64,000 bases of DNA from Pseudomonadota bacterium (GCA_049324495.1 JBMOOP010000110.1:26027-90026), one strand, 5' to 3'; positions 13,438 to 63,083 are shown, counted from the stretch's first letter. The notes: generated from the letters alone by a model not told the origin. Numbers and translations: made by a program.

Positions 13438-13501
13438 AGATGCTGTGCCAGAGTGGGTGTCTTGAACGCAGGTATCCCGGTCGGAAAATAGAGACGCAGT
13501 G

Positions 13502-35018: not shown

Positions 35019-35234
35019 GGCGTGGATAGCTCGCAGGGCGTGGTGGCCGGGTTGATGGATCCTGATGGAAACGCACTTGATTGTAGGGGCGGCGCACCAC
35101 TGCGGGCCAATGGCAGTGTGCAGACCGTGGTGCAGAGAGTCATTCGCAGGTGGCCGGCAGTCTGATTGCCCCCCCGGTACCCTTCGGGGACAATGGCGGC
35201 CCCCGGCCATACCCCGCCCCAGGAGCCCAGTCCG

Positions 35235-38251: not shown

Positions 38252-38276
38252 ATGGTAATTCAATCAGGAACCGAGC

Positions 38277-39464: not shown

Positions 39465-39469
39465 TCGAT

Positions 39470-39850: not shown

Positions 39851-39924
39851 TCATGGGCCCCGATGGCAAGACCGTGAACAATTGCCGCCAGGCGGCAGCC
39901 GCGGAAAAACAGTGAGGTAACGAC

Positions 39925-48979: not shown

Positions 48980-50380
48980 GTGCCCAGCCTGACCCCCACC
49001 GACACACAGAGCCAGACCGCAGAGCTCTTCCGCTCGGCAGTGCGGCGCATCCTGACCGACGCCGAGAGTCTCCTGCGATACGGCCGCGACTGGACCCGTG
49101 CCCAGGATCCGGCGCCAGCGTGCATCCTGTTGCCGGCTTCGATCGAGGAAGTGCAGGCCATCGTCAAGCTGGCCAACCAGCACCGCATTGCGCTGGTGCC
49201 TTCCGGTGGTCGCACCGGCCTCTCCGGCGGCGCTGTCGCCGCCCATGGCGAAGTGGTAGTTGCCATGGATGCCATGAACAAAGTGCTCGGCTTCAATGCG
49301 CTGGATCGCAGCGTGCAGGTGCAGGCCGGTGTGGTGACACAACAACTGCAGCAGTTTGCCGAAACGCAGGGCCTGTATTACCCGGTCGATTTCGCCTCCG
49401 CAGGCTCCAGCCAGATCGGCGGCAACATCGCCACCAATGCCGGCGGCATCAAGGTGATCCGCTACGGCATGACCCGCAACTGGATCAGCGGTCTTAGGGT
49501 CGTTACCGGCAAGGGCGACGTGCTGGAATTGAACAAGGGTCTCGCCAAAAACGCCACCGGTTACGATCTGCGCCATCTTTTCATTGGCAGCGAAGGTACG
49601 CTCGGCATTATTTGCGAAGCGACCGTGCAATTGACGCGCCCGCCCGCGGGCTTGACGGTGCTGGTATTCGGGGTGCCGGATTTTTCTGCCGTGATGAACG
49701 TATTGCACGCTTATCAGGAAAAAATCGACCTCACCGCCTTTGAATTTTTTTCCGAGCAGGCGCTGCGCCATGTGCTTGCGCACGGCGTGCCGCGCCCGTT
49801 CACGGCGCAGGCGCCGCTCTATGTGCTGCTCGAATTCGAGAACGCAAGTGAGGCGGTGGAAAGCGATGCCATGGCGCTTTTCGAAGCCGGCGTTGAAAGG
49901 GGCTGGGTGCTCGATGGCGTTATGAGCCAGTCGGTGCAACAGCTCAAGGATTTGTGGGCGCTGCGCGAGCGCATCAGCGAGAGCATCTCGAAATACACGC
50001 CGTACAAGAACGACATCTCCGTTACCGTTGCCAACGTGCCGGCCTTCGTGAAGGAGGTCGATAACATCGTGCAGGCGAACTACCCGGATTTCGAGATTGT
50101 CTGGTTCGGCCATATCGGCGATGGCAACATGCACTTGAACATCCTCAAGCCCGAGGCGGTGACGCGTGATGATTTTCTTGCCAGGTGCAAGCACGTCAGT
50201 GGCTGGGTTTACGCTGCGGTGCAGAAGTACAGCGGCTCGATTTCGGCCGAGCACGGGCTGGGCAATATCAAGAAACCGTTTTTGCATTACACGCGGGGTG
50301 AAACGGAGCAAGCGTATTTGCGCGCTATCAGGGCGGCGTTTGATCCGAATGGGGTTATGAATCCGGGTAAGGTGATTTGA
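48980..50380 (+). CDS. FAD-linked oxidase (GlcD / D-2-hydroxyglutarate dehydrogenase-like)
   Basis: FAD-binding PCMH domain (ALVPSGGRTGLSGGAV). Divergent from serA, as for the D2HGDH gene in Pseudomonas. GTG start is inferred. Confidence 0.85.
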   Translation: MPSLTPTDTQSQTAELFRSAVRRILTDAESLLRYGRDWTRAQDPAPACILLPASIEEVQAIVKLANQHRIALVPSGGRTGLSGGAVAAHGEVVVAMDAMNKVLGFNALDRSVQVQAGVVTQQLQQFAETQGLYYPVDFASAGSSQIGGNIATNAGGIKVIRYGMTRNWISGLRVVTGKGDVLELNKGLAKNATGYDLRHLFIGSEGTLGIICEATVQLTRPPAGLTVLVFGVPDFSAVMNVLHAYQEKIDLTAFEFFSEQALRHVLAHGVPRPFTAQAPLYVLLEFENASEAVESDAMALFEAGVERGWVLDGVMSQSVQQLKDLWALRERISESISKYTPYKNDISVTVANVPAFVKEVDNIVQANYPDFEIVWFGHIGDGNMHLNILKPEAVTRDDFLARCKHVSGWVYAAVQKYSGSISAEHGLGNIKKPFLHYTRGETEQAYLRAIRAAFDPNGVMNPGKVI

Positions 50381-51250
50381 ATGGCCCCACCACCTTCCGC
50401 CCGCCCATCACCGGCAGGCGTCAACCCGCACGCGCAACAACCCACCTCGCTGGTGGCCTTGGCAGGCAGCCTGTGGCGCAATCGCCGGCTCATTGCACAG
50501 ATGACCCGGCGCGAAGTGGTGGGGCGCTACAAGGGTTCGGTGATGGGTCTGGCCTGGTCGTTCTTCAACCCGGTATTCATGCTGGCGGTGTACACCTTTG
50601 TTTTTTCCGTCGTCTTCAAGTCGCGCTGGGGCGTTGATGGCGATGAGAGCAAGATGCAGTTCGCTGTCGTGCTGTTTGTCGGCATGATCGTGCACGGTTT
50701 TTTTGCCGAAGTGCTCAACAGGGCACCAGGCCTGGTTCTATCCAACGTCAACTACGTCAAGAAAGTCGTGTTCCCGTTAGAGATACTGCCGGTCATTGCC
50801 ATGGGCGCGGCCTTGTTCCACAGCCTGATCAGTCTTGGCGTGTTGCTGTTCGCCTTTGTGATATTCAACGGTTACGTTCCCTGGACGGTGGTCTTGACGC
50901 CGCTGGTGCTGCTGCCGCTGGTCATCCTCACCCTGGGTTTCGCCTGGATGCTCGCCTCCCTCGGTGTATTTTTGCGCGATGTCGGCCAGACCATCGGCAT
51001 CATCACCATGGTCATGATGTTTCTGGCGCCGGTTTTTTACCCGGTTACGGCGCTGTCGGAAGAATTCCGGCCCTGGATCATGGCCAATCCGCTGACCTTC
51101 ATCATCGAGCAGGCCCGCGAGGTGCTGATCTGGGGGCGTATGCCGAACTGGTTGGGTTTGGGCGCCTATCTGGCGATGGCGATGGCGATGGCGTGGGCGG
51201 GTTACGCCTGGTTCCAGAAAACCAGGAAAGGGTTTGCCGATGTCCTCTGA
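50381..51250 (+). CDS. wzm: ABC-2 type polysaccharide export permease
   Basis: RREVVGRYKGSVMGLAWSFFNP signature, six TM helices. ATG directly abuts the upstream TGA. Confidence 0.88.
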   Translation: MAPPPSARPSPAGVNPHAQQPTSLVALAGSLWRNRRLIAQMTRREVVGRYKGSVMGLAWSFFNPVFMLAVYTFVFSVVFKSRWGVDGDESKMQFAVVLFVGMIVHGFFAEVLNRAPGLVLSNVNYVKKVVFPLEILPVIAMGAALFHSLISLGVLLFAFVIFNGYVPWTVVLTPLVLLPLVILTLGFAWMLASLGVFLRDVGQTIGIITMVMMFLAPVFYPVTALSEEFRPWIMANPLTFIIEQAREVLIWGRMPNWLGLGAYLAMAMAMAWAGYAWFQKTRKGFADVL

Positions 51251-52604
51251 TGCGATTTTTTCTGATGAAATTGCGATTCGCGTGCAAGGTCTGAGCAAGT
51301 GCTACCAGATCTACGAAACGCCGAGCGACCGGCTCAAGCAGTTTGTTGCGCCGCGATTGCAGCGCCTGGTCGGGCGGCCTGCCGGGCAGTATTTCCGTGA
51401 ATTCTGGGCGCTCAAGGATGTTTCGTTTGAGGTCAGGAAAGGCGAGACGGTCGGCATTATCGGGCGCAACGGCTCGGGCAAATCGACCTTGCTGCAAATC
51501 ATTTGCGGCACGCTCTCGCCCACCAGCGGCAGCGTGGAAACCTTTGGTCGGATTGCCGCCTTGCTGGAGTTAGGTTCCGGCTTTAATCCCGAATTCACGG
51601 GGCGTGAGAACGTCTACCTGAATGCCGCTGTATTGGGGCTCAGCAAGGAAGAAGTTGACGCGCGGTTCGATGCTATCGCGGCCTTTGCCGATATCGGCGA
51701 GTTCATCGAGCAGCCGGTAAAAACCTATTCGAGCGGGATGTTTGTGCGACTCGCTTTTGCAATCCAGGCGAATGTCGATCCGGAAATATTGATCGTCGAT
51801 GAGGCGTTGGCTGTTGGCGATGCCTACTTTGTGCATCGGTGCATGGCTCGTTTCCACGAGCTTCAGGAAAAGGGCACGACCATCGTGTTCGTCAGCCACG
51901 ACGCCAGCGCTGTAAAGCGCCTGTGCGCCAGGGCGCTGTGGTTCAAGAATGGGCACTTGATCCTGGACGGGAATGCGACGGTTGTTGTCGATGCATATCT
52001 CCAGGACTTGTTCGGCCTGGACGACAAGAAAACAAGCGGTACGGCTGTGGTGCTTTCCGAGGAAAAAATATCTGGGGGAAATAACGTCAGTCTGAAGCTG
52101 GCTTTGCCGCCAGGCGACGGCCGCCTTGGCGCGGGGGCGCTGGAAATCACCGGCATGCTGCTGTCTGACGCGCGTGGATTACCAGCTGGCACGGTCGGCT
52201 GGAATGAGGTTGTTTGCCTGCTGCTGGAAATACAGAACAAGGACGTGCCACCCGGCCAGGCCATCAGCACCGGTTACATCGTGCGAGACGGCAAGGGCAT
52301 CGAAATCGCCAGCGCGAATACGCGCTGGCAGGACGTCGAGGTTTTTGCGCCGGCGCGGGGCGGGTTTGTTCGCGTGTTGATCGAAGTGACAATCCCGATG
52401 CTGCATCCGGGTCATTACTCGCTGACGCCCAGTGTTTCCTCGATTGCCGGGGATCAGAAACAGGTTGTTCAGGATCGCATCCTGAATGCGCTTATTTTTG
52501 AAGTGACGACCAGCGAGGAAATCGTGACGCCCATTCGGTTTGCAACCAAATACTCTGTGTTGCCTTCGGGGCGACCGGCACCAGGTTCGGAGGAAATCGG
52601 CTGA
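51240..52604 (+). CDS. wzt: polysaccharide ABC exporter ATPase with about 190-aa C-terminal extension (Wzt-C-like)
   Basis: Walker A GRNGSGKST, signature YSSGM, Walker B ILIVDEAL. A beta-rich C-terminal domain follows about residue 255. Confidence 0.88.
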   Translation: MSSDAIFSDEIAIRVQGLSKCYQIYETPSDRLKQFVAPRLQRLVGRPAGQYFREFWALKDVSFEVRKGETVGIIGRNGSGKSTLLQIICGTLSPTSGSVETFGRIAALLELGSGFNPEFTGRENVYLNAAVLGLSKEEVDARFDAIAAFADIGEFIEQPVKTYSSGMFVRLAFAIQANVDPEILIVDEALAVGDAYFVHRCMARFHELQEKGTTIVFVSHDASAVKRLCARALWFKNGHLILDGNATVVVDAYLQDLFGLDDKKTSGTAVVLSEEKISGGNNVSLKLALPPGDGRLGAGALEITGMLLSDARGLPAGTVGWNEVVCLLLEIQNKDVPPGQAISTGYIVRDGKGIEIASANTRWQDVEVFAPARGGFVRVLIEVTIPMLHPGHYSLTPSVSSIAGDQKQVVQDRILNALIFEVTTSEEIVTPIRFATKYSVLPSGRPAPGSEEIG

Positions 52605-53425
52605 TGGATCGTTTCTTTATCTCCGGCTGCCAGCGATCGGGGACGACCATGCTGCGGTTGGTGCTTGAGTCGCATCCCGCGGTGCTGTGTGTCGACGAGG
52701 CGGTTGGTTACGACATCCTCGTCCGCGAATCAAAAGGCGAGCGTTGCGAGATTCCCGCCAAGGCGGGTGCGACGCTTCTCGGGTTCAAGATTCCGCGCTT
52801 CACGGAACAGTTGCTGTGGAAGGAGTTTGTCGATCTGGACTATGGCGCATTTCCGTCTTTCTACAAGGACGAAAAAGTCATTCATATTGTCAGGGATGCG
52901 CTGGACGTGATCGGATCGATGATGAAATTGAAGACCGAGGGCGGCGCGTCGTGGCTCGACCGATACGGCCGCAGCATTCTTCAGGCCCTGGTCAGGCACC
53001 CGAACATCAGTGCGCAATACCGGCAGGCATATGAGGATCTGGAGCACCGGGGGCTGCCGTCTCACCTGGTGGGGGCGCTTTATTGGCAGGTCAAGAACCA
53101 GGGGCTTCTTGACCTGCTTGAACACGGCAAGCCGGTCTACCCGGTCAGGTATGAATCCCTGGTTGGCTCGCCGGGGAGCGAGTTGCTGAAACTCGTTCAA
53201 TTCCTGGGCGTGAACTGGAGCGACTCGTTGCTCAATCACCCCGGAAGCCCGCATGCGGAGATCGATGAAAAGGGGCTGGCGATTGGCGAAACCGATCCGC
53301 TTCGAACCATCGATATGCAATCGATAGGCGGCCATCGTCAGGTGATGACCGAATTGCAGATCCAGGATGTCAGGCAGTACGTTGAATCTTTTTCAAAACG
53401 AATTGATTGCGCGATAACGACATGA
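52604..53425 (+). CDS. sulfotransferase-family protein
   Basis: 5'-PSB-like loop FISGCQRSGTTML. Later RYESLV (3'-PB-like). 273 aa, cytoplasmic. Confidence 0.75.
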   Translation: MDRFFISGCQRSGTTMLRLVLESHPAVLCVDEAVGYDILVRESKGERCEIPAKAGATLLGFKIPRFTEQLLWKEFVDLDYGAFPSFYKDEKVIHIVRDALDVIGSMMKLKTEGGASWLDRYGRSILQALVRHPNISAQYRQAYEDLEHRGLPSHLVGALYWQVKNQGLLDLLEHGKPVYPVRYESLVGSPGSELLKLVQFLGVNWSDSLLNHPGSPHAEIDEKGLAIGETDPLRTIDMQSIGGHRQVMTELQIQDVRQYVESFSKRIDCAITT

Positions 53426-56400
53426 TCTTTGACCAATACAGTCGCTACAAAGCCTGCGCCGATTTGCTTCGGCTTGCCGGCTTTTCTCCAGGTCAGTCTG
53501 TACTCGACGCAGGCAGTGGGCCGGAGTGCCTGTTCGGGCAATTCATGCCGGATGCTGCGATGACCTATGTCGATCCGCTGATCCCGGGCGGTTCCGGATC
53601 GAACCATATCACCGGCGACGTCTTTGCCGGCCAGCTGGATGGGCAGCTTTTTGATTGCGTGTCTTCTGTCGACGTTCTGGAGCATGTGCCGCCGCAAGAT
53701 CGCAAGGCAATGTTGCAGCGCTTGTCATCGTTGAGCCGGCATACCTTGATTCTCGGCTTTCCCACGTCCGACTCTTCCCGTGCGCTGGAGACGGACAGGG
53801 CCATCGAGGATCAATACCGGGCTGTTTATGGCCGGGATTATTCGTGGCTTGAGGAGCACCACAAGTTTGGTCTCCCGTCCCTCGCGGAAACGGTGACGCA
53901 GTTAAGTGAGTTGGGATGGCATTGCCAGTCGGTTGGCCACGGCCACGCGCCCTGGCTGCAGGAACTGCTGGGCTTTGTGATTTGCGCGTGGGAAATCCCC
54001 GGGTTGAAGGATGTCGTTCTGAAGATCAGCGATCGCTTCAATCGCGAATTGTATCCCCATGACTTTTTGTCCCCGCACTACCGGCAGTTTGTCATTGCCA
54101 CGCGCAATCCGGTGCCGCGCATCGTTCCGCCTGCGGGCGCAGGAAGCCGCAGTGATGCCGAGGCTCTCTTCCGGGCACTGATGGAAGATGCGCACCACCA
54201 GTATTTCGCCGCCAGCATGCGGCAACTTGTCGATCGGGAAATCCTGGTTGTCGAGCGGAATGCCGTGCTGGCTGAGCGCGACCACGAGGTCGGCGCCCTC
54301 AACGCGAAGATTCAGGAAGTGTCTGCCTGGGGCAAGAAATTGCAGGGTGAAATGGTCGAGCGCGACCGGCAGGTGGGCGCGCTCAATGCGCAGGTCGAGA
54401 AGGTCTCCATCTGGGGCAAAACCCTGCAGGACAGGGTAGCTGAGCGTAACGCGCAGATCGATGTGCTCAACGCAAAGATTGAAGAAATATCTACCTGGTC
54501 CCAGGCCATGCAGGGCGCGCGAGACGCGGCCCTTGCCGAGAAAGACGCGGCCCTTGCCGAGAAAGACGCGGCTCTTGCCGAGAAAGACGCGGCTCTTGCC
54601 GAGAAAGACGCGGCCCTTGCCGAGAAAGACGCGGCCCTTGCCGAGAAAGACGCGGCCCTTGCCGAGAAAGACGCGGCCCTTGCAGCGAGGGATGCAGCGC
54701 TTGCCGAAACCGGGGTGGTGAGCAACGAACGCGATGACGCGCTGCGCCTGCGCAATGATTACATGCGCCTGGTCGATCTCATGCGCAGCAGCCTGTCATG
54801 GCGCCTGACCATGCCGCTGCGGTTGATTGCCAGAATTTTCCGGCACGGCCTCGTCGGCGATGACCGCCGCCGGGTTGTCGACATGTTGCGGCGCCTGTAC
54901 CACCGGGTGCCGTTGCCGGCGGCAGTGCGATACCGTGTCAGCCAACACATGCAAAGTCGCCGGCGTGGTTTTGTGTTGTCGGTTGAACCGCAGAGGGATT
55001 CGCCGCTGTCGACCATGCCCGATTCTGCAGTCAGGCTGGAGGTTCAGCAGTCGGGCCTTCCGGATTACATCTTTTGGGGCGTGATTGACTGGCATTTCCG
55101 GCACCAGCGCCCGCAGCAGTTGGCGCAGGCGCTGGCCGACAGCGGGCGTCGCGTGTTTTACGTGTCGGAATCGATGGTCGACAATGAAGCGCCGGGCTTC
55201 GATATCGAGCCGCTCGGCGATACCGGCCGGCTGTTCAGCATCAGGTTGTTCGTGAAGGGCGCGCCGGTGATTTATCACTCGGTTCCGACCGGCGACCATA
55301 TCGTGCAGTTGCGGCAAAGCGTGGGCGAATTGCTGGCCTGGGCCAACACCGGCTCGACCGTGTCGATGGTCCAGCACCCGTTCTGGCTCAACGTGGCCGC
55401 TGCGCTGCCTGACGGCCGGCTTGTATACGACTGCATGGATCACCACGAAGGCTTCGGCAACGTGCCGCCGGAAATGATTGCCATGGAGCGGGCGCTGCTC
55501 GCCAGCGCCGACCTCACCATCACGACATCTTCCTGGCTGGACCAGATCGTTGCCGGCAAGACCGCTAACCGCGCCATCATCCGCAATGCCGGCGAGTTCG
55601 AGCATTTTGCACGGGTGCCGGGCGACATCTTCCGCGATCCGAAGGGGCGGCGCGTCATCGGCTACTACGGCGCCATTGCCGAGTGGTTCGATATCGAACT
55701 GGTCGCGGCGATTGCGCAGAAATTTTCGGATTGCTGCATCCTGCTGATCGGCTCCGATACCGTGAACGCCAAGGGCGTGCTCGGCAAATATTCCAACGTC
55801 ACGTTTACCGGCGAGATTCCCTATGCGGAACTGCCGCGCTACCTGCATGCGTTTGATGTGTGCCTGCTGCCGTTCAGGGTCATCCCACTGACGCTGGCCA
55901 CCAACCCGGTGAAGGTCTACGAATACCTGAGTGCGGGAAAGCCGGTCGTGGTCGTGGATCTGCCCGAGATGGCGCAGTTCGGCGACCTGGTCGATGTTGC
56001 GCGGAATCATGACGAGTACTGCGCTGCCATTGAGCGGCACCTCGCACTAAAAGCTGCTCCGGCGGCAGTGGCAGCACGGCAGGAGTTCGGCCGCAACCAG
56101 ACTTGGGGTCACCGTGCGACGAAACTGATCGAGCATGTTGAATCGGCAGCGGGAGATCCGCCGGTCAGCGTGATCGTTGTCACGTACAACAATATCGAAT
56201 TGACCAAGGCTTGCCTCGCGAGCCTCGATGCGCATTCGCACTACGGCAACATCGAGATCATCGTCGTCGATAACGCGTCCAGCGACGGCTCACCGGAATT
56301 TCTTGCCGACTGGGTAAAGCAGGCGGGTAACCGCAAGCTGATCCTGAATACTGACAACCGGGGTTTTGCGGCGGCGAACAACCAGGGCCTGGCGATTGCA

Positions 56401-56940
56401 TCCGGTGATTATCTCGTCCTGCTGAACAATGACACCTACGTTACGCCCGGCTGGGTCAGGACGATGGTGAACCACATGCGTCGCAATACCGGCCTCGGCC
56501 TGCTGGGGCCGGTGACGAACAATATCGGCAACGAAGCGCGCATCGAGATTTCCTACGAGTCGATGGACGAGATGCTGGTTCGGTCTCGCGAACACACGCG
56601 TCGCCGGATCGGCCGGATATTCCCGCTGCGCACTGCCGCGTTTTTCTGCGTGATGATTCCCAGGAAGACGTATGAGGCCGTTGGCCCGCTCGACGAGGCG
56701 TTCGGCCGTGGCTTCTTCGAAGATGACGATTATTGTCGCCGCGTGGAGCAACTCGGATTGCAGGTCGGTTGTGCCGAAGATGTGTTCATTCACCACCACC
56801 TTTCCGCGTCGTTCAACAAGCTGAAGCAGGAAGACCGGCAGCGTCTCTTCGAAGAAAACAAGAAAATCTACGAGGCGAAGTGGGGTGCGTGGATTCCGCA
56901 TACCTATGAACGGGTCGGCGAGGGGGGGGCGCCGCCGTGA
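53422..56940 (+). CDS. four-module protein: class-I SAM methyltransferase / coiled coil / GT4-like (TuaH-like) glycosyltransferase / GT2 glycosyltransferase
   Basis: MTase motifs VLDAGSGPE, FDCVSSVDVLEHV. Heptad repeats 54274-54711. GT4-like VIGYYGAIAEWFDIELV...NPVKVYEYLSAGKPVV. GT2 VSVIVVTYNN...VVDNASSDGS...NNDT...FEDDDY. ATGA overlap with the sulfotransferase gene. Confidence 0.85.
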   Translation: MIFDQYSRYKACADLLRLAGFSPGQSVLDAGSGPECLFGQFMPDAAMTYVDPLIPGGSGSNHITGDVFAGQLDGQLFDCVSSVDVLEHVPPQDRKAMLQRLSSLSRHTLILGFPTSDSSRALETDRAIEDQYRAVYGRDYSWLEEHHKFGLPSLAETVTQLSELGWHCQSVGHGHAPWLQELLGFVICAWEIPGLKDVVLKISDRFNRELYPHDFLSPHYRQFVIATRNPVPRIVPPAGAGSRSDAEALFRALMEDAHHQYFAASMRQLVDREILVVERNAVLAERDHEVGALNAKIQEVSAWGKKLQGEMVERDRQVGALNAQVEKVSIWGKTLQDRVAERNAQIDVLNAKIEEISTWSQAMQGARDAALAEKDAALAEKDAALAEKDAALAEKDAALAEKDAALAEKDAALAEKDAALAARDAALAETGVVSNERDDALRLRNDYMRLVDLMRSSLSWRLTMPLRLIARIFRHGLVGDDRRRVVDMLRRLYHRVPLPAAVRYRVSQHMQSRRRGFVLSVEPQRDSPLSTMPDSAVRLEVQQSGLPDYIFWGVIDWHFRHQRPQQLAQALADSGRRVFYVSESMVDNEAPGFDIEPLGDTGRLFSIRLFVKGAPVIYHSVPTGDHIVQLRQSVGELLAWANTGSTVSMVQHPFWLNVAAALPDGRLVYDCMDHHEGFGNVPPEMIAMERALLASADLTITTSSWLDQIVAGKTANRAIIRNAGEFEHFARVPGDIFRDPKGRRVIGYYGAIAEWFDIELVAAIAQKFSDCCILLIGSDTVNAKGVLGKYSNVTFTGEIPYAELPRYLHAFDVCLLPFRVIPLTLATNPVKVYEYLSAGKPVVVVDLPEMAQFGDLVDVARNHDEYCAAIERHLALKAAPAAVAARQEFGRNQTWGHRATKLIEHVESAAGDPPVSVIVVTYNNIELTKACLASLDAHSHYGNIEIIVVDNASSDGSPEFLADWVKQAGNRKLILNTDNRGFAAANNQGLAIASGDYLVLLNNDTYVTPGWVRTMVNHMRRNTGLGLLGPVTNNIGNEARIEISYESMDEMLVRSREHTRRRIGRIFPLRTAAFFCVMIPRKTYEAVGPLDEAFGRGFFEDDDYCRRVEQLGLQVGCAEDVFIHHHLSASFNKLKQEDRQRLFEENKKIYEAKWGAWIPHTYERVGEGGAPP
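54274..54525 (+). repeat. 3 x 84-bp diverged in-frame tandem repeat (28-aa units = 4 heptads each)
   Basis: ERDHEVGALNAKIQEVSAWGKKLQGEMV / ERDRQVGALNAQVEKVSIWGKTLQDRVA / ERNAQIDVLNAKIEEISTWSQAMQGARD. Units start at 54274, 54358 and 54442. Confidence 0.85.
54523..54711 (+). repeat. 9 x 21-bp in-frame tandem repeat (heptad DAALAEK)
   Basis: Seven copies of GACGCGGC(C/T)CTTGCCGAGAAA (54523-54669) differing only by one synonymous C/T. Two diverged copies follow (DAALAAR, DAALAET). Confidence 0.95.
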
Positions 56941-57311
56941 GCGGCCAGCTCTTCCGGTTCTTGGCAACCGGTGCCCTCGCGACGGCGCTGCAGTATATCG
57001 TGCTCTGGTTCGGCGTCGAGATGCTCGCCTGGCAGCCAGTGCGGGCGTCGGGCGCCGGCTACCTGGCGGGTTCTGTACTGAGTTATGTACTCAACTATTT
57101 CTTCACGTTCGGAAGCGATCGCAGCCATCCCGAAACGGTCATGAAGTTCTATGTAATGGTTGCGATCGGCTGGTGCGTGAATACTGGGTCAATGGCGTTC
57201 CTGACCCAGTTCCTGCACTGGGGTGTCTGGGTTTCCCAGGTCCTCGCTACGATCATCACGCTCGTCTGGAATTTCCTGATTTCCCGTCACATTGTCTTTC
57301 GGTCGAACTGA
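56937..57311 (+). CDS. GtrA-family small membrane protein
   Basis: FRFLATGALATALQYIVLWF..., four TM helices, 124 aa. GTGA overlap with the upstream gene. Confidence 0.8.
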   Translation: MSGQLFRFLATGALATALQYIVLWFGVEMLAWQPVRASGAGYLAGSVLSYVLNYFFTFGSDRSHPETVMKFYVMVAIGWCVNTGSMAFLTQFLHWGVWVSQVLATIITLVWNFLISRHIVFRSN

Positions 57312-57312
57312 T

Positions 57313-58290
57313 ATGAAAAAGCTTATCTCAGTCATTGTCCCCGCCTTCAACGAGGAGGATGTCATCGATATCTTCCACGCCAGCATGAGTGAGGTGTTCG
57401 ACAGGCTGCCGCAATATCGCTGCGAGATGATATTCGTCAACGATGGGAGTTCGGACCGTACCCGGGAGATCATCCTCGCGCTCGCGGGCCGGGATCCGCG
57501 CGTTTCGGTGATTTCCCTGTCACGCAATTTCGGCAAGGAAGCGGCGATGACGGCCGGGTTCGATCATGCGCGCGGCGATGCCGTCGCGATCTTCGACGTC
57601 GACCTGCAGGATCCGCCGGATCTACTCTTCCAGTTCGTCGAACACTGGGAGAAGGGTTATGACGTCGTCTATGCGAAGCGCACCCACCGGGACGGCGAGT
57701 CCTGGGTGAAGAAGGTCACCGCGGCGGCTTTCTACCGCGTGATACAGAAGCTCTCTCGTGTTTCCATCCCGCAGGATACCGGCGACTGCCGCCTGATGAG
57801 CCGCCGGGTCGTGCAGGAACTTATCCGGCTGCGCGAGCATCACCGCTTCATGAAGGGGCTGTTCGCGTGGGTAGGCTTTCCGTCGATCGCGGTTGAGTAC
57901 CGCCGGGATCCCCGCGTCGCCGGGGAAACCAAGTTCAACTACTGGAAGCTCTGGAACTTCGCGCTCGAGGGCATCACGTCATTCACCATCGCGCCGTTGA
58001 AAATCGCCATGTACGTGGGTTTCCTGATCGCGGCAGGCGCTTTTCTCATGGGCGGCTGGATCGTACTCAAGACGCTGCTGTGGGGTGAGGCGGTTCGTGG
58101 TTACCCGACCCTCATCGTCACCGTCCTGTGCATGGGTGGCGTCCAGCTCTTCTTCATCGGGGTGCTGGGCGAGTACTTGGGGCGGATTTTCGGTGAGACC
58201 AAGAATCGGCCGCTCTACCTGGTCGAGTGTTTCCAGCCTTCGGCCGTGAGTGCAGGTGGTCCCGTTGAGCCGGAAACGGATCGGGGTTGA
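57313..58290 (+). CDS. polyprenyl-phosphate glycosyltransferase (GtrB/ArnC-like GT2)
   Basis: ISVIVPAFNEE...FVNDGSSDRT...FDVDLQDPP. Two C-terminal TM helices. Confidence 0.85.
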   Translation: MKKLISVIVPAFNEEDVIDIFHASMSEVFDRLPQYRCEMIFVNDGSSDRTREIILALAGRDPRVSVISLSRNFGKEAAMTAGFDHARGDAVAIFDVDLQDPPDLLFQFVEHWEKGYDVVYAKRTHRDGESWVKKVTAAAFYRVIQKLSRVSIPQDTGDCRLMSRRVVQELIRLREHHRFMKGLFAWVGFPSIAVEYRRDPRVAGETKFNYWKLWNFALEGITSFTIAPLKIAMYVGFLIAAGAFLMGGWIVLKTLLWGEAVRGYPTLIVTVLCMGGVQLFFIGVLGEYLGRIFGETKNRPLYLVECFQPSAVSAGGPVEPETDRG

Positions 58291-58356
58291 ATACTGGATT
58301 GGGCGGCGACGCCTTTCGCGCCGCTGCCAACGGTGAATTGAGGATGTTTCGACGCC

Positions 58357-59388
58357 ATGAAAATGCTGGGTGATCTGTTCAGCGGCCGCGAGAACAACAT
58401 GAACCTGATGCGGCTAGTGGCCGCATTCGCGGTCATATACGGGCATGCCTCCGCCATTACGGGGCATGGTCCGGGAGATATATTCCTGCAGCTTGTTGGT
58501 TTCAAGTTCATCGGTGGCGTCGCAGTCGACGTGTTCTTTGTGTTAAGCGGCTTCCTCGTTTGTGCGAGTGCGATGAGTGTCAACGGGCTCAAGTACTACT
58601 TCGCATCGCGCCTGCTGCGCATCTACCCGGCGTTGTTTGTGTGCGTTGGCTTGTCGGTGCTGGTCATCGGGCCGCTGCTGAGTGTCTCGGATATGTACTG
58701 GTCCGATCCGCAGACCTGGCGGTACCTGTTCAACAACGCCACGGCTTTCCGCACGGAATACTTCCTGCCCGGCGTCTTTACGAGCCTGCATGACCCGGCG
58801 GTGAATGGCTCGCTCTGGTCGCTCCAGGTCGAGGTCAGGCTCTATCTGATCCTCGCGTTGGCGGCGATCCTCGGTGTGTTCCGCAACAGGGCGCTGTTCA
58901 ATTTCCTGTTCTTCGCCACACTGGTCATCGGTTACCTGAAGCCTGACGTCTTTGGCGGTTTTCTCGGTCCGGAGAACCATCGCCACGTCGCGATGATGTT
59001 TCTGATCGGGGCTTTCGCGTGGATCAACCGTGACCAGATTCCGATGAGCCCGGTGTTCATGCTGGCCTTGCTGTTCTTCGCTGCGACCTTGCACGGCACC
59101 GACAAGTTCAACTATGCCTATTCGATCCTCCTGCCCTATGCCGTGCTCTACATCGCGGTAGCTCCGGGTGGGCGCTGGTTTGATCGCTTCGGTGATTACT
59201 CGTACGGCGTGTACCTGTATGGCTGGCTTTCGCAGCAACTGGTGATGGCCGCATATCCCGACGCGAGCAATGCGGCCAACGCCTGGCTCGGCGCTCTGCT
59301 CGCCCTGGCGTTCGCGATGATGTCATGGCATTTCATCGAGAAGCCGTCCCTTGCCTACAAGAAGTTGTTTGCCCGGAAGGTCGCATGA
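58357..59388 (+). CDS. acyltransferase-3 family integral membrane O-acyltransferase
   Basis: NNMNLMRLVAAFAVIYGHA, GVAVDVFFVLSGFL, about 10 TM helices. Confidence 0.85.
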   Translation: MKMLGDLFSGRENNMNLMRLVAAFAVIYGHASAITGHGPGDIFLQLVGFKFIGGVAVDVFFVLSGFLVCASAMSVNGLKYYFASRLLRIYPALFVCVGLSVLVIGPLLSVSDMYWSDPQTWRYLFNNATAFRTEYFLPGVFTSLHDPAVNGSLWSLQVEVRLYLILALAAILGVFRNRALFNFLFFATLVIGYLKPDVFGGFLGPENHRHVAMMFLIGAFAWINRDQIPMSPVFMLALLFFAATLHGTDKFNYAYSILLPYAVLYIAVAPGGRWFDRFGDYSYGVYLYGWLSQQLVMAAYPDASNAANAWLGALLALAFAMMSWHFIEKPSLAYKKLFARKVA

Positions 59389-60803
59389 GCATGTACACGA
59401 ATGCCGGGGTCACGCGTACGCTGCAGGACGTCGCGCTAATTTTCTGCCTGTCGCTGTTGGGGCTGCTGTGGTTGATTGCCAACCCGGGGTACTACAGCCA
59501 CGACGAATTGCAAAAGCTCGATCATGTCGTCCGCTATGGCTTCCAGGAATACCTGAAAGCGTATGTCGTTATCGTCCAAGGCAGTGAGTTTGGCACGCCG
59601 GTGCGGCCGTTCGCCTTCTTCATTCAGGGTGTACTCGCGCTGGGGATGAGGGATTTCCCTTTCCTGGTCCATCTGTTCGACGTGCTCACCCACGCGGCGG
59701 TTGCGGCGCTGGTTTACCTGGCATTGCGGCGGTTCGCCGTCGAACGGCGCGTGGCGCTGGTGGCTGCCGCCGGTTTTGCGCTGAGCCCCATGGCCGTCAT
59801 TGCGGCCGGCTGGTCTGCGGCACTGATGGATCGCTGGTATGTCCTGTTCGGTTTGCTGGCGCTGCTTGCCGTCGAGCGCTTCCTGAGCGGCACACAACAA
59901 AAGCGCTATCTCGTCCTGCTGTTCCTTTGGGCGTCGCTCGCGATCCTGTCCAAGGAAACGGCGATCATGCTGGCCGGGACGATGATGATCTTCATCCTGA
60001 TACGTCCGCAGATCCTGAGGGAACGGAAGTTCTGGGTCGCGCTGGCAGTGTTCGCGCTCCCTGCGCTGCTGTATCTGTTGTATCGCTTGCCGGCCATCGT
60101 TTCCTCGTTCGGCAATCCGGCCGGAGGCGCCTACAAGGCATCGACGGGCAACCTGCCGGAAGGGATCGTCCTCTATCTCGCCTATCCCTTTCTCTATTCG
60201 GTGACGGAGGCAATCAACTGGGTGTTCGTCCCGAAGTTCTGGGTGGGCGTGGCAGTCGCTGCGAACCTTGCCATCCCGCTATTGCTGTGGCGCCTGAAGA
60301 GTGCACGGTTCGCGCTCGGTTATGTCTTTTTCTATTTTCTGTTCCTGCTGCCGGTCCTATTGATCCCGAACCGGGGAGCACATTACCTGTATGGGTCGTC
60401 GATCGTGGTTTGTGTCGCGCTGGCATGCCTGCTCTGCGATCGGGCATCGTGGTTCAGTCCGCACCGTATCGCTGCCCTCGGCCTAGCCGCCGTTTTGCTG
60501 GTGCACACCGTTTACCTGCAGGTATTTGTATATTCGATCGGGTCATGCATGGACTCGGCGATGACTGGCGTCGAAGCGAGCTATCTTGGCATCGACAGGC
60601 CTTCTGCGCTCGAGTTGCGCGCGGAGCCCGGTGCTCCTGGCCATGTTCTTCACCGGTTCACCACCGGGCGCGAGCAGATCGGAGAAAACTATCCGGTGAA
60701 GATGACGGTCGCTGAATGGGATGCACCGTCTGACGGCGCGACGCCGGTTCTGATCATGGACAGGCAGTGTCGGGTTTTTGCCCGCCTTGCACCGAAGCGA
60801 TAG
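59385..60803 (+). CDS. GT-C-fold (ArnT/PMT/GtrC-like) polytopic membrane glycosyltransferase
   Basis: Multiple TM helices. First-loop acidic motif YYSHDELQKLD. ATGA overlap with the acyltransferase gene. Follows the GtrA/GtrB-like pair. Confidence 0.6.
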   Translation: MSMYTNAGVTRTLQDVALIFCLSLLGLLWLIANPGYYSHDELQKLDHVVRYGFQEYLKAYVVIVQGSEFGTPVRPFAFFIQGVLALGMRDFPFLVHLFDVLTHAAVAALVYLALRRFAVERRVALVAAAGFALSPMAVIAAGWSAALMDRWYVLFGLLALLAVERFLSGTQQKRYLVLLFLWASLAILSKETAIMLAGTMMIFILIRPQILRERKFWVALAVFALPALLYLLYRLPAIVSSFGNPAGGAYKASTGNLPEGIVLYLAYPFLYSVTEAINWVFVPKFWVGVAVAANLAIPLLLWRLKSARFALGYVFFYFLFLLPVLLIPNRGAHYLYGSSIVVCVALACLLCDRASWFSPHRIAALGLAAVLLVHTVYLQVFVYSIGSCMDSAMTGVEASYLGIDRPSALELRAEPGAPGHVLHRFTTGREQIGENYPVKMTVAEWDAPSDGATPVLIMDRQCRVFARLAPKR

Positions 60804-60870
60804 GTTTCGCTCAGTGCGAGGCGGCCGTGAGGACGCTGGATTCCAGACAGGCGAGAAGCGAGAATTAATC

Positions 60871-61977
60871 GTGAACAAGGTTTCCAAGATTCTGTGCGTC
60901 GTCGGCACCCGCCCCGAAGCCATCAAAATGGCCCCGGTCATTCTCGCGCTAAAAAAAGAGCCCTGGGCGGAGGTGCGCGTGCTGGCCACGGCGCAGCATC
61001 GCCACATGCTCGACCAGGTGCTGAAGTTTTTCGATATCGAGCCGGACATCGACCTCGACATCATGAAGCCGAACCAGGCGCTGACGACACTGACGGCGCG
61101 CCTGCTGCTCGATCTTGACGATGTGCTGACCGCCGAAAAGCCGGACGTGGTCCTGGTGCAGGGCGATACCACCACCGTCATGACCGCGGCGCTTGCGTCT
61201 TTCTATCACCGCATCCCGATCGGCCACGTCGAGGCCGGGCTGCGTACCGGCGATATGCAGAATCCCTTTCCGGAAGAAGCCAATCGCGTGATTTCCGGTC
61301 GGTTGGCACGCTGGCATTTTGCGCCGACGGAAAGTTCGCGACAGAACCTCCTGCGCGAAGGCGTTGCCGATACCGCCATCGTTGTTACCGGCAATACCGT
61401 CATCGATGCGCTGCTGATGACGGCGTCGCGCGAGCTCACGCTCGATGTCCCGCTGGTTCCGGACAGGCGAATGGTGCTGATCACGGCGCACCGGCGCGAA
61501 AATTTCGGCGAGCCATTCCGCAACATCTGCCGGGCGCTGCACGATCTCGCTGCTCGCAACCCGGATGTGCAGTTTCTGTATCCGGTACATCCGAATCCGA
61601 ACGTCAAGGACGTGGCGCACGAGATGCTGGGCAAGTGCGCCAACTTCATGTTGTGCGATCCGCTCGACTACGCGCCATTCATCGCCGCCATGAAGCGCGC
61701 GCACTTCATCATCAGTGATTCCGGTGGCGTGCAGGAAGAAGCACCGGCGCTGGGCAAGCCGGTGCTGGTGCTGCGCGAGGAAACAGAACGGCCGGAAGCC
61801 GTGGATGCCGGCGTCGTGAAACTGGTGGGGTCCGATTACCAGCGCATCATGACCGAAGCGCAACGGCTGCTCGACGACGACGTTGCGTACCGGGCGATGG
61901 CTCGCGGTGTTTCACCCTACGGCGACGGCCATGGTGCCGAACGCATCGCCAAGGTATTGCGAGAGCATTTTTCTTGA
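60871..61977 (+). CDS. wecB: UDP-N-acetylglucosamine 2-epimerase (non-hydrolysing)
   Basis: KILCVVGTRPEAIKMAPV, HVEAGLRT, DSGGVQEEAP. GTG 60871 start inferred. Confidence 0.9.
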   Translation: MNKVSKILCVVGTRPEAIKMAPVILALKKEPWAEVRVLATAQHRHMLDQVLKFFDIEPDIDLDIMKPNQALTTLTARLLLDLDDVLTAEKPDVVLVQGDTTTVMTAALASFYHRIPIGHVEAGLRTGDMQNPFPEEANRVISGRLARWHFAPTESSRQNLLREGVADTAIVVTGNTVIDALLMTASRELTLDVPLVPDRRMVLITAHRRENFGEPFRNICRALHDLAARNPDVQFLYPVHPNPNVKDVAHEMLGKCANFMLCDPLDYAPFIAAMKRAHFIISDSGGVQEEAPALGKPVLVLREETERPEAVDAGVVKLVGSDYQRIMTEAQRLLDDDVAYRAMARGVSPYGDGHGAERIAKVLREHFS

Positions 61978-63083
61978 GGCGACTGGTTTATCTTTCGCCG
62001 GTTCCGTGGGCGAGCTACGCCCAGCGTCCGCATCACTTCGTGAGATGGTTTCGCGCGCGCACCCGCGGCGAGGTGCTGTGGGTGGATCCGTACCCGACGC
62101 GTTTGCCGACGGCCGCTGACTGGCGACGGGTTGGTCGCGCCGATGAGCCTGTCGATATCGTTGTGCCCGATTGGCTGCGCCTCGTCCGGCCCAGGGCGCT
62201 CCCGATCGAACCATTGCCCGGCTCGACCTTCATCAATCGCCCGTTGTGGTGCAATACCCTGGAGCGTGCCAGCGATTTTCTGGCGGCGGGCGATGCCGTC
62301 ATCTGCATCGGCAAGCCATCCGCGCTCGCGCTGGATGTGTTGCGCGGCGCGGCAGGCGTGCCGGCAGTCTATGACGCGATGGACGATTTTCCGGCGTTCT
62401 ATTCGGGATTGTCGAAGGTATCGATGCGCAGGCGTGAGGGGACAATCCTCGCGCAGGTTTCCCGGGTGCTGGTTTCTTCGACTGCGCTGGCGGGGCGTTT
62501 CGCTGCGCAAGATATCGAGGCGACGCTGGCACTCAATGCCTGCGCGACCGATACGCTACCGCCGGTCGCGGCTCTGCCGCCACGACCGGCGAAAGAGGTG
62601 ATTGGTTACGTGGGTACCATTGGCGCCTGGTTTGACTGGGAATTGGTGACGAGAATCGCAAAAGAGAACCCGCAGGCTCAGCTCAGGTTGATCGGGCCGC
62701 TGTATCTGCCACCGCCAGGCGCCTTGCCGGCAAACGTGTCGCTGGTGCCGGCTTGCGATCATGCAGCGGCGATCCGCGCCATGACGGAATTTTCTGTGGG
62801 CTTGATTCCTTTCCGTCTGACGCCGCTGACGGCATCGGTCGACCCGATAAAATATTACGAGTACCGGGCGCTCGGGTTGCCAGTAGCCTCGACGCGATTT
62901 GGTGAGATGGCGCTGCGCGGGCAAAATGACGGTGTACTTTTGATTGGGGCAGAAGATGAGTTGTCCAATCTGGTAAGGGTAGCGAGTCATCTTGTGCCTA
63001 CGCACGCACAGCAGCTGGAGTTCCGCACGAAGAATTCCTGGGAGGCTCGCTTCGATGCAGCCGGTATTATCGGCGGACTGTGA
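61974..63083 (+). CDS. GT4-like (TuaH-like) glycosyltransferase, paralog of the third module of the 53422 protein
   Basis: VIGYVGTIGAWFDWELV and LIPFRLTPLTASVDPIKYYEYRALGLPVA align with VIGYYGAIAEWFDIELV and LLPFRVIPLTLATNPVKVYEYLSAGKPVV. TTG start overlaps the wecB TGA. Confidence 0.8.
   Translation: MRRLVYLSPVPWASYAQRPHHFVRWFRARTRGEVLWVDPYPTRLPTAADWRRVGRADEPVDIVVPDWLRLVRPRALPIEPLPGSTFINRPLWCNTLERASDFLAAGDAVICIGKPSALALDVLRGAAGVPAVYDAMDDFPAFYSGLSKVSMRRREGTILAQVSRVLVSSTALAGRFAAQDIEATLALNACATDTLPPVAALPPRPAKEVIGYVGTIGAWFDWELVTRIAKENPQAQLRLIGPLYLPPPGALPANVSLVPACDHAAAIRAMTEFSVGLIPFRLTPLTASVDPIKYYEYRALGLPVASTRFGEMALRGQNDGVLLIGAEDELSNLVRVASHLVPTHAQQLEFRTKNSWEARFDAAGIIGGL

Follow-up and report, generated by a model that had tools for sequence, protein, structure and literature searches.

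The gene at positions 53422..56940 of the window (the whole stretch of 64,000 nucleotides that was analysed) probably encodes a chain terminator, a molecular ruler and a polymerase on a single polypeptide. The glycan assembled by this protein would depend on an ABC transporter for export and is most likely the LPS O-antigen of the host, a member of the Pseudomonadota. A sequence-only reading of the DNA had already proposed such a fused polymerase, ruler and terminator. Its functional part is backed by the domain anatomy and by the comparison with relatives, whereas the novelty of the arrangement and an assignment to the WbdD type that goes beyond analogy did not hold.

Domain architecture of the 1172-amino-acid protein

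The gene is located on the forward strand, as are all other features of the window described below, and its ATG start codon lies within an ATGA that overlaps the stop codon of the upstream gene. The deduced protein of 1172 amino acids (ORF call, Pfam, NCBIfam, AF2) is identical to a database entry named 'MAG: glycosyltransferase [Pseudomonadota bacterium]' (P0001), and a tblastn search of plasmids returned merely generic 'glycosyltransferase' annotations. From the N- to the C-terminus, the protein comprises a SAM methyltransferase domain, a long helix, a GT-B module (GT4-like) and a GT-A module (GT2). When the full protein was compared with the PDB using phmmer, the matches were GT2 relatives only. 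A kinase domain was matched neither by Pfam nor by NCBIfam, and searches with Pfam and with phmmer against the PDB matched neither Capsule_synth nor GT99.

The N-terminal domain (aa 1-230; 53422..54111) is the proposed chain terminator. The AF2 model of aa 1-245 has a pLDDT of 94, and its best 50 PDB fold matches in Foldseek were without exception class-I SAM methyltransferases (50/50, E 3e-10 to 8e-8), with TM-scores of only ~0.5. The domain displays the Rossmann-like fold, the glycine-rich motif I and the acidic residue after strand 2 that define this enzyme class. Both motifs cited in the sequence-only reading are present in the ORF (VLDAGSGPE at aa 27-35 and FDCVSSVDVLEHV at aa 77-89). Across 24 homologs, G31 and G33 of motif I as well as D51, D84, E87 and H88 are invariant, and D29 of LDaGSGPE is nearly so; the identity of the domain amounts to 50-90% across 120 homologs. 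The Pfam family Methyltransf_23 matched aa 6-118 below the gathering score (E 1e-4). Because of this sub-threshold match and the TM-scores mentioned above, fold and motifs only suggest methyltransferase activity of aa 1-230. The sub-threshold Pfam match had brought a kinase-like or inactive fold into consideration, which was rejected because the SAM motifs are invariant and the fold matches point to methyltransferases. Some homologs possess two or even three domains with a methyltransferase fold, and a methyltransferase of this family is therefore not necessarily a terminator. The closest relatives carry a methyltransferase also at the C-terminus, which the protein described here lacks. A frameshift remnant of this domain was rejected, since the stop codon and the next GT2 gene are no more than 124 codons apart, a space taken up by gtrA, and since the genes downstream are not the same.

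The second part of the protein is a helical or coiled-coil spacer (aa 243-455; 54148..54786), the proposed molecular ruler. In the full-length AF2 model, it forms a near-unbroken helix of ~210 residues (243-364, 372-429 and 433-455), which was modelled as a monomer with a coil pLDDT of 55-70. The heptad repeats, for which about 150 or more residues had been claimed, were recovered with a heptad score of 0.65-0.80 over aa 281-434; nearly everywhere else the score was ≤0.57, the exceptions being single windows of 0.60-0.65 at aa 883-910 and 1093-1120. The spacer is followed by a linker (aa 458-520; 54793..54981) with an SWRLTxPLR motif and cationic amphipathic helices, a putative membrane-proximal anchor. 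The hydrophobic moment of the whole protein reaches its maxima in this linker (0.58-0.68, net charge +3/+4). The SWRLTxPLR motif is kept family-wide and is also found at the C-terminal end of a stand-alone methyltransferase-coil protein (P0169).

Both glycosyltransferase modules reside in the same reading frame, as proposed earlier; the Pfam domains score above the gathering threshold and the folds agree. The GT-B module (aa 548-906; 55063..56139), putatively the first half of the polymerase, contains Glyco_trans_1_4 at aa 758-873 (43.1 bits, cutoff 27) and matched a TuaH-like NCBIfam model over aa 687-904 (E 1.6e-25). Its fold matches in Foldseek include MshA, PglA and glycogen synthase. The GT-A module (aa 915-1154; 56164..56883), the putative second half, contains Glycos_transf_2 at aa 916-1080 (100.1 bits, cutoff 23.3, E 1.7e-28). 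The K4CP chondroitin polymerase was among its PDB sequence matches, and ppGalNAcT and K4CP were matched by fold. The residues D950, D1004 and E1100-D1103 of this module are invariant.

Gene cluster around the polymerase gene

In agreement with the sequence-only reading, the gene directly follows wzm, wzt and a sulfotransferase gene, and every junction overlaps. The first gene, wzm (50381..51250), encodes the ABC-2 permease of a glycan exporter (Pfam ABC2_membrane, E 6.5e-24). The second, wzt (51240..52604), encodes an ATPase (ABC_tran, E 6e-24) with a C-terminal carbohydrate-binding domain (Wzt_C, E 7e-15), which covers approximately nt 52125..52517 and scores 55.7 bits at a cutoff of 30.4. 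The third gene (52604..53425) encodes a free-standing sulfotransferase (Sulfotransfer_3, E 5e-16; Sulfotransfer_1, E 1e-9) with the PAPS-loop-like motifs CQRSGTTML and HIVRDALDVIGS; this enzyme is a candidate for a contribution to capping or for modification of the chain. The overlaps amount to 11 nt between wzm and wzt (ATG of wzt at 51240), 1 nt between wzt and the sulfotransferase gene, and 4 nt between the latter and the polymerase gene. Judged from these junctions, the three genes are predicted to be translationally coupled to the polymerase gene.

Downstream, the GTG start codon of a gene for a gtrA-like small membrane protein (56937..57311; GtrA_DPMS_TM, E 1e-22) overlaps the stop codon of the polymerase gene by 4 nt. 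It is followed by a gene for a putative polyprenyl-phosphate sugar synthase (57292..58290), a GtrB/PgfS/ArnC-like GT2 protein, whose NCBIfam matches to PgfS (E 1.6e-90) and ArnC-like (E 1e-46) are full length and lie below the equivalog cutoffs. The next genes encode an Acyl_transf_3 O-acyltransferase (58357..59388; Pfam, E 9e-26), a periplasmic glycosyltransferase of the GT-C type (PMT_2/ArnT-like, 59325..60803; Pfam PMT_2, E 1e-10) and WecB (60778..61977), the non-hydrolysing UDP-GlcNAc 2-epimerase that makes UDP-ManNAc (TIGR00236, 491 bits, cutoff 210). The GT4 module has a stand-alone GT-B paralog (U369, 61974..63083), a candidate adaptor glycosyltransferase that shows weak tblastn cross-matches to GT4 modules and is encoded beside wecB in most loci; the C-terminal half of U369 is TuaH-like (NCBIfam, E 8e-10). 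The last gene (62992..63966) encodes a further GT2 glycosyltransferase (Glycos_transf_2, E 1.7e-21) with weak similarity to the rhamnosyltransferase subfamily TIGR01556, and the gene cluster appears to extend beyond the end of the window. O-antigen clusters usually combine wzm and a wzt that encodes Wzt_C with GtrA/GtrB/GT-C genes for decoration.

Proposed mechanism of chain assembly

From the domain anatomy and the gene context we infer a cap chemistry, a ruler function, an oligomeric state and sugar identities that would fit together as follows. On the cytoplasmic side of the inner membrane, the GT-B and GT-A modules would alternate in extending a chain of disaccharide repeats that is built on undecaprenyl diphosphate. 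ManNAc is suggested as one of the sugars because the wecB neighbour is conserved. The polymerase end would be held to the membrane by the cationic amphipathic helices of the linker (aa 458-520), and the ~210-residue helical spacer, which probably oligomerises as a coiled coil of roughly 25-30 nm, would keep the N-terminal SAM methyltransferase distant from the polymerase. Chains would be methylated at the non-reducing end only once they are long enough to reach the methyltransferase, and this methylation would halt chain growth. The capped end might then be recognised by the carbohydrate-binding domain of Wzt, and the chain would be exported by Wzm/Wzt. The adjacent sulfotransferase may have a share in the cap or in decorating the chain, and the products of the downstream GtrA, GtrB-like, GT-C and acyltransferase genes may decorate it further in the periplasm.

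Homologs and natural module swaps

The survey of homologs for the domain layout revealed the chassis of coil, GT4 and GT2 modules in at least 585 species genomes or loci, with a variable N-terminal module; as far as sequence matches indicate, relatives of the protein are widespread in bacteria. For comparison, 82 loci were used, 80 from the scan for the GT4-GT2 chassis plus L001 and L002. In nearly all of them, wzm/wzt relatives and a wecB homolog are located near the polymerase gene. The cassettes preceding the coil comprise the methyltransferase described here, canonical methyltransferases, a sulfotransferase, a pyruvyltransferase, GT17 combined with the methyltransferase described here, DUF4915, an extra GT4, and an acetyltransferase combined with a KpsC/WbbB-like Kdo transferase (L052). 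The module N-terminal to the coil thus appears to be interchangeable across the family. The sulfotransferase occupies this position in 18 of the 82 loci, mostly as a fusion and in two cases as an adjacent gene.

One swap concerns P0004, which is 87% identical to the protein described here over coil and glycosyltransferases and has a pyruvyltransferase in place of the methyltransferase. Its locus (L002) lacks the sulfotransferase gene and encodes a Wzt with a conserved ATPase part and an unrelated binding domain. The syntenic locus L001 encodes a methyltransferase-bearing ortholog, and its Wzt is 94% identical along the whole length. A Wzt binding domain resembling that of the window was found in six of nine loci with the methyltransferase versus two of 57 without it (p = 2e-5), most of these matches being just 22-35% identical.

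An alternative assigns the terminating or export signal to the upstream sulfotransferase, either alone or as part of a sulfate-plus-methyl cap, with the methyltransferase as an accessory modifier of terminal or internal sugars. We consider this unlikely, and the module swaps themselves do not tell a methyl cap from a sulfate cap or from a combination of the two, because L002 has lost both enzymes and the 18 loci mentioned above carry a sulfotransferase in the terminator position. The latter loci favor the sulfotransferase, as do its disappearance from L002 along with methyltransferase and Wzt binding domain, its predicted translational coupling between wzt and the polymerase gene, and the orthologs in the equivalent position in L001, L008 and L025. 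Furthermore, L047, which is devoid of the methyltransferase, encodes a weak relative of the sulfotransferase, and the binding domain of its Wzt shares 35% identity with that of the window. A gene with a sulfotransferase domain is also located between wzt and wbbB in the Aeromonas salmonicida cluster; however, sulfate was not detected in the O-antigen of this organism (PMC4483657). The free-standing sulfotransferase of the window lacks a coil, so that the ruler could not gate its action unless the enzyme docks on the large protein. Moreover, in a phmmer scan, the sulfotransferase type of the window was missing in eight of the 12 loci with the methyltransferase described here (no match in L007, L009, L010, L019, L021, L077 and L078; a marginal match on the opposite strand in L045), and the fused and the free sulfotransferases are barely related (E 0.004). 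The methyltransferase remains the preferred terminator.

Stand-alone proteins consisting of methyltransferase, coil and basic tail also occur, for example, P0169 (387 aa). P0169 and its like have the layout of WbdD, and by analogy the stand-alone and the fused versions seem to correspond to WbdD, in which the terminator is a protein by itself, and to WbbB, in which it is part of a fusion. The natural swaps provide ready comparisons for the co-evolution of cap chemistry and exporter specificity.

Comparison with characterised systems

The sequence-only reading had taken the combination of methyltransferase, coil and polymerase for new. This layout is already known from ORF6 of Klebsiella pneumoniae O7, which has been characterised biochemically (Kelly et al., JBC 2024, PMC11231755), and from WsaE of Geobacillus, which has been described (PMC2943079), so that the novelty claim fails. 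ORF6-O7 consists of a methyltransferase, a cryptic kinase, an Ig-like domain, a coiled coil and two C-terminal glycosyltransferases. According to the published layout, it resembles the protein of the window in the N-terminal capping methyltransferase, the central coiled coil and the two C-terminal polymerase modules. In ORF6-O7, however, a ~223-aa cryptic kinase and the Ig-like domain lie between methyltransferase and coil, and the cap is a methyl phosphate. There is no room for these domains in the protein of the window, because its helix starts at aa 243, 13 residues past the methyltransferase fold. In addition, ORF6-O7 has two GT2 modules, whereas one GT-B and one GT-A module are present here.

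With WbbB (K. pneumoniae O12/Raoultella terrigena), the protein shares a terminator that is followed by a coiled coil and a pair of polymerase modules and, presumably, cap-dependent export. The terminator of WbbB is a GT99 beta-Kdo transferase, in contrast to the SAM methyltransferase fold found here, and its polymerase modules founded the CAZy families GT102 and GT103; the modules of the protein described here are GT4-like and GT2, and the likeness to WbbB is one of layout. The WbbB structure in the PDB covers residues 2-401 only. A Kdo-transferase-like variant of the chassis exists in L052, and proteins of Klebsiella, Raoultella or Aeromonas were absent from the results of a database search seeded with it. 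Taken together with ORF6-O7 and WbbB, the features in common are the wzm/wzt neighbours, Wzt_C, the extended coil, and a distal terminator combined with glycosyltransferase modules.

The designation of the cap as WbdD-type stands as an analogy; homology is not supported, since WbdD was not matched, and a kinase is absent. The proteins would be alike in a methyltransferase-based cap, a coiled-coil ruler and a membrane-proximal basic or amphipathic region (WbdD of Escherichia coli O8/O9a and K. pneumoniae O3/O5), and in the WbdD system the Wzt binding domain recognises the cap, as it might here. In contrast to the fused, kinase-free protein of the window, WbdD acts with a separate polymerase (WbdA), and that of O9a carries a kinase. 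A profile of 24 methyltransferase-domain sequences matched other methyltransferases and did not match WbdD among PDB chains at E ≤ 10, and WbdD was absent from the top 50 Foldseek matches. The methyltransferase of the window and WbdD share the general class-I fold alone.

WsaE of Geobacillus stearothermophilus NRS 2004/3a is an N-terminal capping 2-O-methyltransferase fused to two rhamnosyltransferase domains (PMC2943079). By its published layout it corresponds to the protein described here in the capping methyltransferase and the two glycosyltransferases, and the start and stop codons of wzm, wzt and wsaE overlap as well. It differs in belonging to a Gram-positive pathway for a protein-linked S-layer glycan, and a ruler coil is not described in that report (PMC2943079). 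Since S-layer glycoprotein glycans and other glycan classes use the same strategy, the product might also be a non-LPS polymer (capsule, exopolysaccharide or protein-linked glycan) assembled by identical logic, which we regard as rather improbable. Within the window, no O-antigen ligase and no lipid A-core genes were identified, and the nearest NCBIfam names are those of teichuronic-acid enzymes, which would be in line with such a polymer. On the other hand, the host is a Pseudomonadota MAG, and wzm, the wzt with Wzt_C and the GtrA/GtrB/GT-C decoration genes conform to the O-antigen pattern. The O-antigen cluster of A. salmonicida, which contains the gene named 'WbbB', has a nearly identical order of wzt, sulfotransferase, large gene, wecB, GT2, ArnT-like and acyltransferase genes (PMC4483657). 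A non-LPS product would alter the product and leave the mechanism as it is. LPS O-antigen remains the preferred product. To the known coiled-coil strategy of measuring and capping surface glycans, the protein would contribute an uncharacterised sequence family that is very widespread and in which a divergent capping methyltransferase is joined to a polymerase of one GT-B and one GT-A module.

Length variation of the spacer

Within the ruler, a 21-bp x 7.7 tandem repeat (54522..54683; TRF, 98% matches) encodes (DAALAEK)n. At this array, the orthologs P0002, P0003 and P0004, which are 86-91% identical, are shorter than the protein of the window by exactly 28, 35 and 28 aa, respectively, corresponding to exactly 4 or 5 heptads; the gap at the DNA level is 84 nt. 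Across the family, the coil-coding region recurrently contains tandem repeats whose period is a multiple of 21 bp. The in-house heptad mask at 0.6 gave false positives within globular domains, and spacers were measured motif-to-motif instead. Their length varied from 60 to 232 aa (n = 47 homologs) and fell into two mod-7 classes (chi-square p = 2e-6, uncorrected for shared ancestry). The two heptad-phase classes and the whole-heptad differences between orthologs argue for a structured, in-register rod.

That the long helix serves oligomerisation or scaffolding only, with chain length set by kinetics or stoichiometry, is very doubtful: the almost four-fold spread of spacer lengths could indicate weak constraint, a coiled-coil protein has also been described as a membrane-associated scaffold (PMC11231755) and WsaE methylates in vitro independently of chain length (PMC2943079), but the spacers keep to their two heptad-phase classes, close orthologs differ by whole heptads, and experiments have demonstrated that WbdD and WbbB act as rulers (PMC11231755).

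A function of the helix as a ruler is preferred. More speculatively, and less likely than not, this ruler may be a natural variable-number tandem repeat in heptad units, and sulfation may be a chain-terminating cap in the family, to which the coupled sulfotransferase of the window and the 18 loci with a sulfotransferase in the terminator position would point. No description of a sulfate terminator was found in the literature that could be searched. When metagenomes were scanned with a 27-nt flank of the array for alleles with other repeat numbers, there were zero matches. Given the 21-bp array and the differences of exactly four or five heptads, slippage could quickly retune the modal length of the O-chain, in steps of ~1 nm if the repeat number varies in this way. 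The whole-heptad differences between near-identical orthologs represent a natural experiment on ruler length.

Gene arrangement and domain structure of the fusion protein

The large multidomain gene (53422..56940, +) forms a single reading frame, as proposed in the sequence-only reading, and encodes 1172 amino acids. The gene order wzm, wzt, sulfotransferase gene, and large gene with overlapping stop and start codons was also confirmed. The three junctions overlap by 11, 1, and 4 nucleotides, respectively, the start ATG of the large gene lying within an ATGA that is shared with the stop codon of the sulfotransferase gene; another 4 nucleotides overlap with the gtrA-like gene downstream. The wzm product matches Pfam ABC2_membrane, Wzt combines ABC_tran with a carbohydrate-binding Wzt_C domain, and the sulfotransferase was likewise assigned by Pfam.

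Both motifs quoted for a class-I SAM methyltransferase were located in the translation (VLDAGSGPE, residues 27–35; FDCVSSVDVLEHV, residues 77–89). A Methyltransf_23 match at residues 6–118 (E 1e-4) stayed under the Pfam threshold. The GT4-like and GT2 modules reported for the same frame were recovered over threshold as Glyco_trans_1_4 (758–873) and Glycos_transf_2 (916–1080), and an NCBIfam TuaH-like match covers residues 687–904. The full-length AlphaFold2 model, built with 53 homologs as input, has a mean pLDDT of 83.6. It comprises a confident alpha/beta domain (1–230), a near-unbroken helix (243–364, 372–429, and 433–455), three short helices (458–520), a GT-B domain (548–906), and a GT-A domain (915–1154). 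The pLDDT of the long helix is 55–70, which would be expected of a coiled coil in a monomer model. In Foldseek searches of the PDB, the GT-B part resembled MshA, PglA, and glycogen synthases, and the GT-A part ppGalNAc-transferases and K4CP.

Modelled by itself, the N-terminal domain reached a pLDDT of 94.2. Its 50 highest-ranking PDB matches are without exception class-I SAM methyltransferases, among them the sugar O-methyltransferases RebM and AtmM. Across 24 homologs, there is no variation at the motif-I glycines G31 and G33, at D51 following strand 2, or at D84, E87, and H88. From the model and this conservation we conclude that the domain has a methyltransferase fold with a SAM pocket, as the sequence-only reading held, and is presumably an active methyltransferase. 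The same reading described its capping chemistry as WbdD-type. Of this, the methyltransferase as the proposed capping enzyme stands, but kinship to WbdD was found neither by sequence (profile against the PDB) nor among the top 50 fold matches.

A heptad-repeat coil of variable length

A heptad-repeat region of about 150 residues or more had been claimed. With a simple heptad score, residues 281–434, which are part of the modelled helix, reach 0.65–0.80; almost everywhere else the score is ≤0.57, apart from isolated windows at 883–910 and 1093–1120 (0.60–0.65). A single register shift near residue 365 coincides with a helix break in the AlphaFold2 model. The first part of the coil consists of three 28-residue repeats (ERDxQvgALNaqvEkVSxWGkxLQ) and the second of eight DAALAEK heptads. 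The latter are encoded by a tandem array at 54522..54683 (21 bp × 7.7, 98% matches), whose copies differ at one polymorphic site only, which is synonymous. At 0.15 nm per residue, some 210 helical residues arranged as a coiled coil would by calculation extend over roughly 25–30 nm.

In alignments with the three closest relatives, gaps of exactly 28, 35, and 28 residues fall within the DAALAEK array; at the DNA level, the gap is 84 nucleotides. Array length differs by exactly four or five heptads between orthologs that are 86–91% identical, which suggests repeat slippage in the 21-bp array as a route to altered ruler length. Judged from these alignments, the ruler looks like a tandem repeat of heptad units that varies in length between near-identical relatives. 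Among 47 homologs, the stretch separating the methyltransferase domain from the SWR motif behind the coil measures 60 to 232 residues (median 95) and is longest in the window protein. Modulo 7, most of these spacer lengths belong to one of two classes (18/47 and 13/47; chi-square p = 2e-6, uncorrected for shared ancestry). In 28 of 83 family members, the coding region ahead of GT4 contains tandem DNA repeats, whose period is mostly 21, 42, 84, or 105 bp.

No other helices of the protein are as amphipathic and cationic as those at residues 458–500, between the coil and the GT-B domain, a composition that would fit a membrane-proximal anchor. In many family members, the coil is directly followed by the motif S-x-S-W-R-L-T-x-P-L-R (54790..54830, residues 457–470), which is also present in stand-alone methyltransferase–coil proteins and may be a docking site for the membrane or a partner.

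Relatives and exchange of terminator modules

The exact window protein was found solely in one Pseudomonadota MAG. The best 120 database homologs share a common plan of an optional extra N-terminal domain, methyltransferase, coil, linker, GT4, and usually GT2. In this set, the methyltransferase domain (50–90% identical) is more conserved than the GT4 module, the coil varies in length, and the linker carries the SWRLTxPLR motif and basic helices. A C-terminal zinc ribbon with a methyltransferase domain is frequent, but absent from the window protein. The N-terminal methyltransferase domain alone has 758 relatives at E ≤ 1e-10 among 50%-identity cluster representatives. In most of the 150 listed among these (77 to 2160 residues, fragments included), it occupies an N-terminal or nearly N-terminal position. 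Also among them are stand-alone methyltransferase–coil–basic-tail proteins such as P0169 (387 residues), which have the layout of WbdD.

When one genome of each species was scanned, at least 585 loci were found to encode GT4–GT2 relatives. Eighty of these were compared together with L001, a locus with a methyltransferase-bearing ortholog, and L002, a locus with a pyruvyltransferase variant. In these 82 loci, the GT4–GT2 gene nearly always has wzm/wzt, a UDP-GlcNAc 2-epimerase gene, and a separately encoded paralog of the GT4 module close by, and the region ahead of the coil varies by lineage. It holds canonical methyltransferases in 16 loci (e.g., Janthinobacterium, Stenotrophomonas), and elsewhere a methyltransferase of the window type, alone or with GT17, DUF4915, an additional GT4 domain, or, in Cupriavidus (L052), a hexapeptide acetyltransferase with a KpsC/WbbB-like Kdo transferase. 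The L052-type pair was also detected in several Pseudomonas species (P0121–P0152) on other polymerase chassis with GT2 Pfam domains only; therefore, terminator modules are shuffled and not only polymerases.

A natural exchange is found in L002. Its protein P0004 (L002:1-5061) shares 87% identity with the window protein across the coil and the two GT modules, yet where the window protein has the methyltransferase it has a 400-residue pyruvyltransferase (PS_pyruv_trans), so that terminal pyruvylation may be another cap. The ATPase part of the L002 Wzt is conserved, whereas its C-terminal binding domain is unrelated to that of the window. In L001, Wzt is 94% identical to the window protein's Wzt end to end and the sulfotransferase 95%. 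That the distal module and the binding domain of Wzt were replaced jointly is as predicted for a cap that is made by the distal enzyme and read by Wzt.

As the main alternative, the cap could come wholly or in part from the coupled sulfotransferase. L002 lacks the sulfotransferase gene, and because methyltransferase and sulfotransferase were exchanged together, this swap cannot separate one from the other. Sulfotransferases recur at or beside the terminator position of the GT4–GT2 chassis family: such a domain precedes the coil in 18 of the 82 loci (L026, L027, L035, L039, and others; Dyella, Rhodanobacter, Frateuria, Thermomonas, and others), adjacent in two and fused in most. This placement points to sulfate as a possible chain terminator, a role for which no description was found in the literature searched. 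In the O-antigen cluster of A. salmonicida, the gene order is strikingly like that of the window, and wzt is separated from the gene of a 1122-residue "WbbB" by one for a sulfotransferase-domain protein (PMC4483657). Strain A450 has this conserved gene, yet its O-antigen is without reported sulfate (PMC4483657); one sulfate group at the end of each chain might have escaped detection.

Proposed function and comparison with known systems

The domain anatomy, the Wzt_C domain, the module swaps, and the whole-heptad length differences support the terminator–coil–polymerase interpretation, and the window protein is quite probably a single-chain terminator, ruler, and polymerase. At the membrane, the GT-B and GT-A modules would build a glycan of disaccharide repeats, with ManNAc suggested as one of the sugars by the ubiquitous wecB, which scores over its NCBIfam cutoff. 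The coil would set the methyltransferase at a distance from the polymerase; growth would halt once the non-reducing end is methylated, and the methylated end would license export by Wzm/Wzt via Wzt_C.

The combination had been put forward as possibly new, which does not hold. ORF6 of K. pneumoniae O7, the subject of a biochemical dissection in 2024, is a single polypeptide with a methyltransferase at its N-terminus, together with a cryptic kinase, an Ig-like domain, a coiled coil, and two GT2 modules; the authors of that study call the strategy widespread (PMC11231755). In WsaE of G. stearothermophilus, a capping methyltransferase is fused with two rhamnosyltransferase domains (PMC2943079). 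The window protein is therefore an uncharacterised addition to known terminator–coil–polymerase systems, and the design itself is not new. It differs in its modules from ORF6, WsaE, and the A. salmonicida "WbbB": kinase and Ig-like domains are lacking, and GT-B is paired with GT-A. The A. salmonicida "WbbB" has Kdo-transferase-like, GT1-like, and GT2 domains (PMC4483657), whereas the proposed terminator of the window protein is a methyltransferase. Of remaining interest are the heptad-unit repeat ruler of varying length and the sulfotransferases recurring in the terminator position or adjacent to it.

Surroundings of the cluster

At 56880..57311, the large gene of the window stops and gtrA follows, then a gtrB-like gene, an acyltransferase gene, and a GT-C gene. 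The region 56937..60803 encodes a GtrA-like protein, a PgfS/ArnC-like polyprenyl-phosphate sugar synthase, an Acyl_transf_3 enzyme, and a GT-C (PMT_2) enzyme, a combination resembling a three-component system for periplasmic glycosylation together with O-acylation of the exported chain. In contrast, the closest relatives, P0002 and P0003, extend beyond GT2 into the zinc ribbon and methyltransferase domain (about 255 residues), followed by an 818-residue protein of unknown function (L001:13400-16800). Beyond this differing block, wecB and the GT4 paralog are again 93–96% identical between the window and L001, which marks the locus as a mosaic with a variable central block. The 369-residue protein encoded at 61974..63083 is distantly paralogous to the GT4 module and has no Pfam match at 1e-3; it accompanies wecB beside the polymerase gene in most related loci and may be the adaptor glycosyltransferase.

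Upstream, a housekeeping block (35166..40989, +) encodes transketolase, GAPDH, phosphoglycerate kinase, and class-II fructose-bisphosphate aldolase, and an FAD-linked oxidase gene is located at 48980..50380; wzm is thus the left edge of the glycan cluster. Far outside the cluster, an open reading frame for 2231 amino acids lies at 13499..20194 (+).
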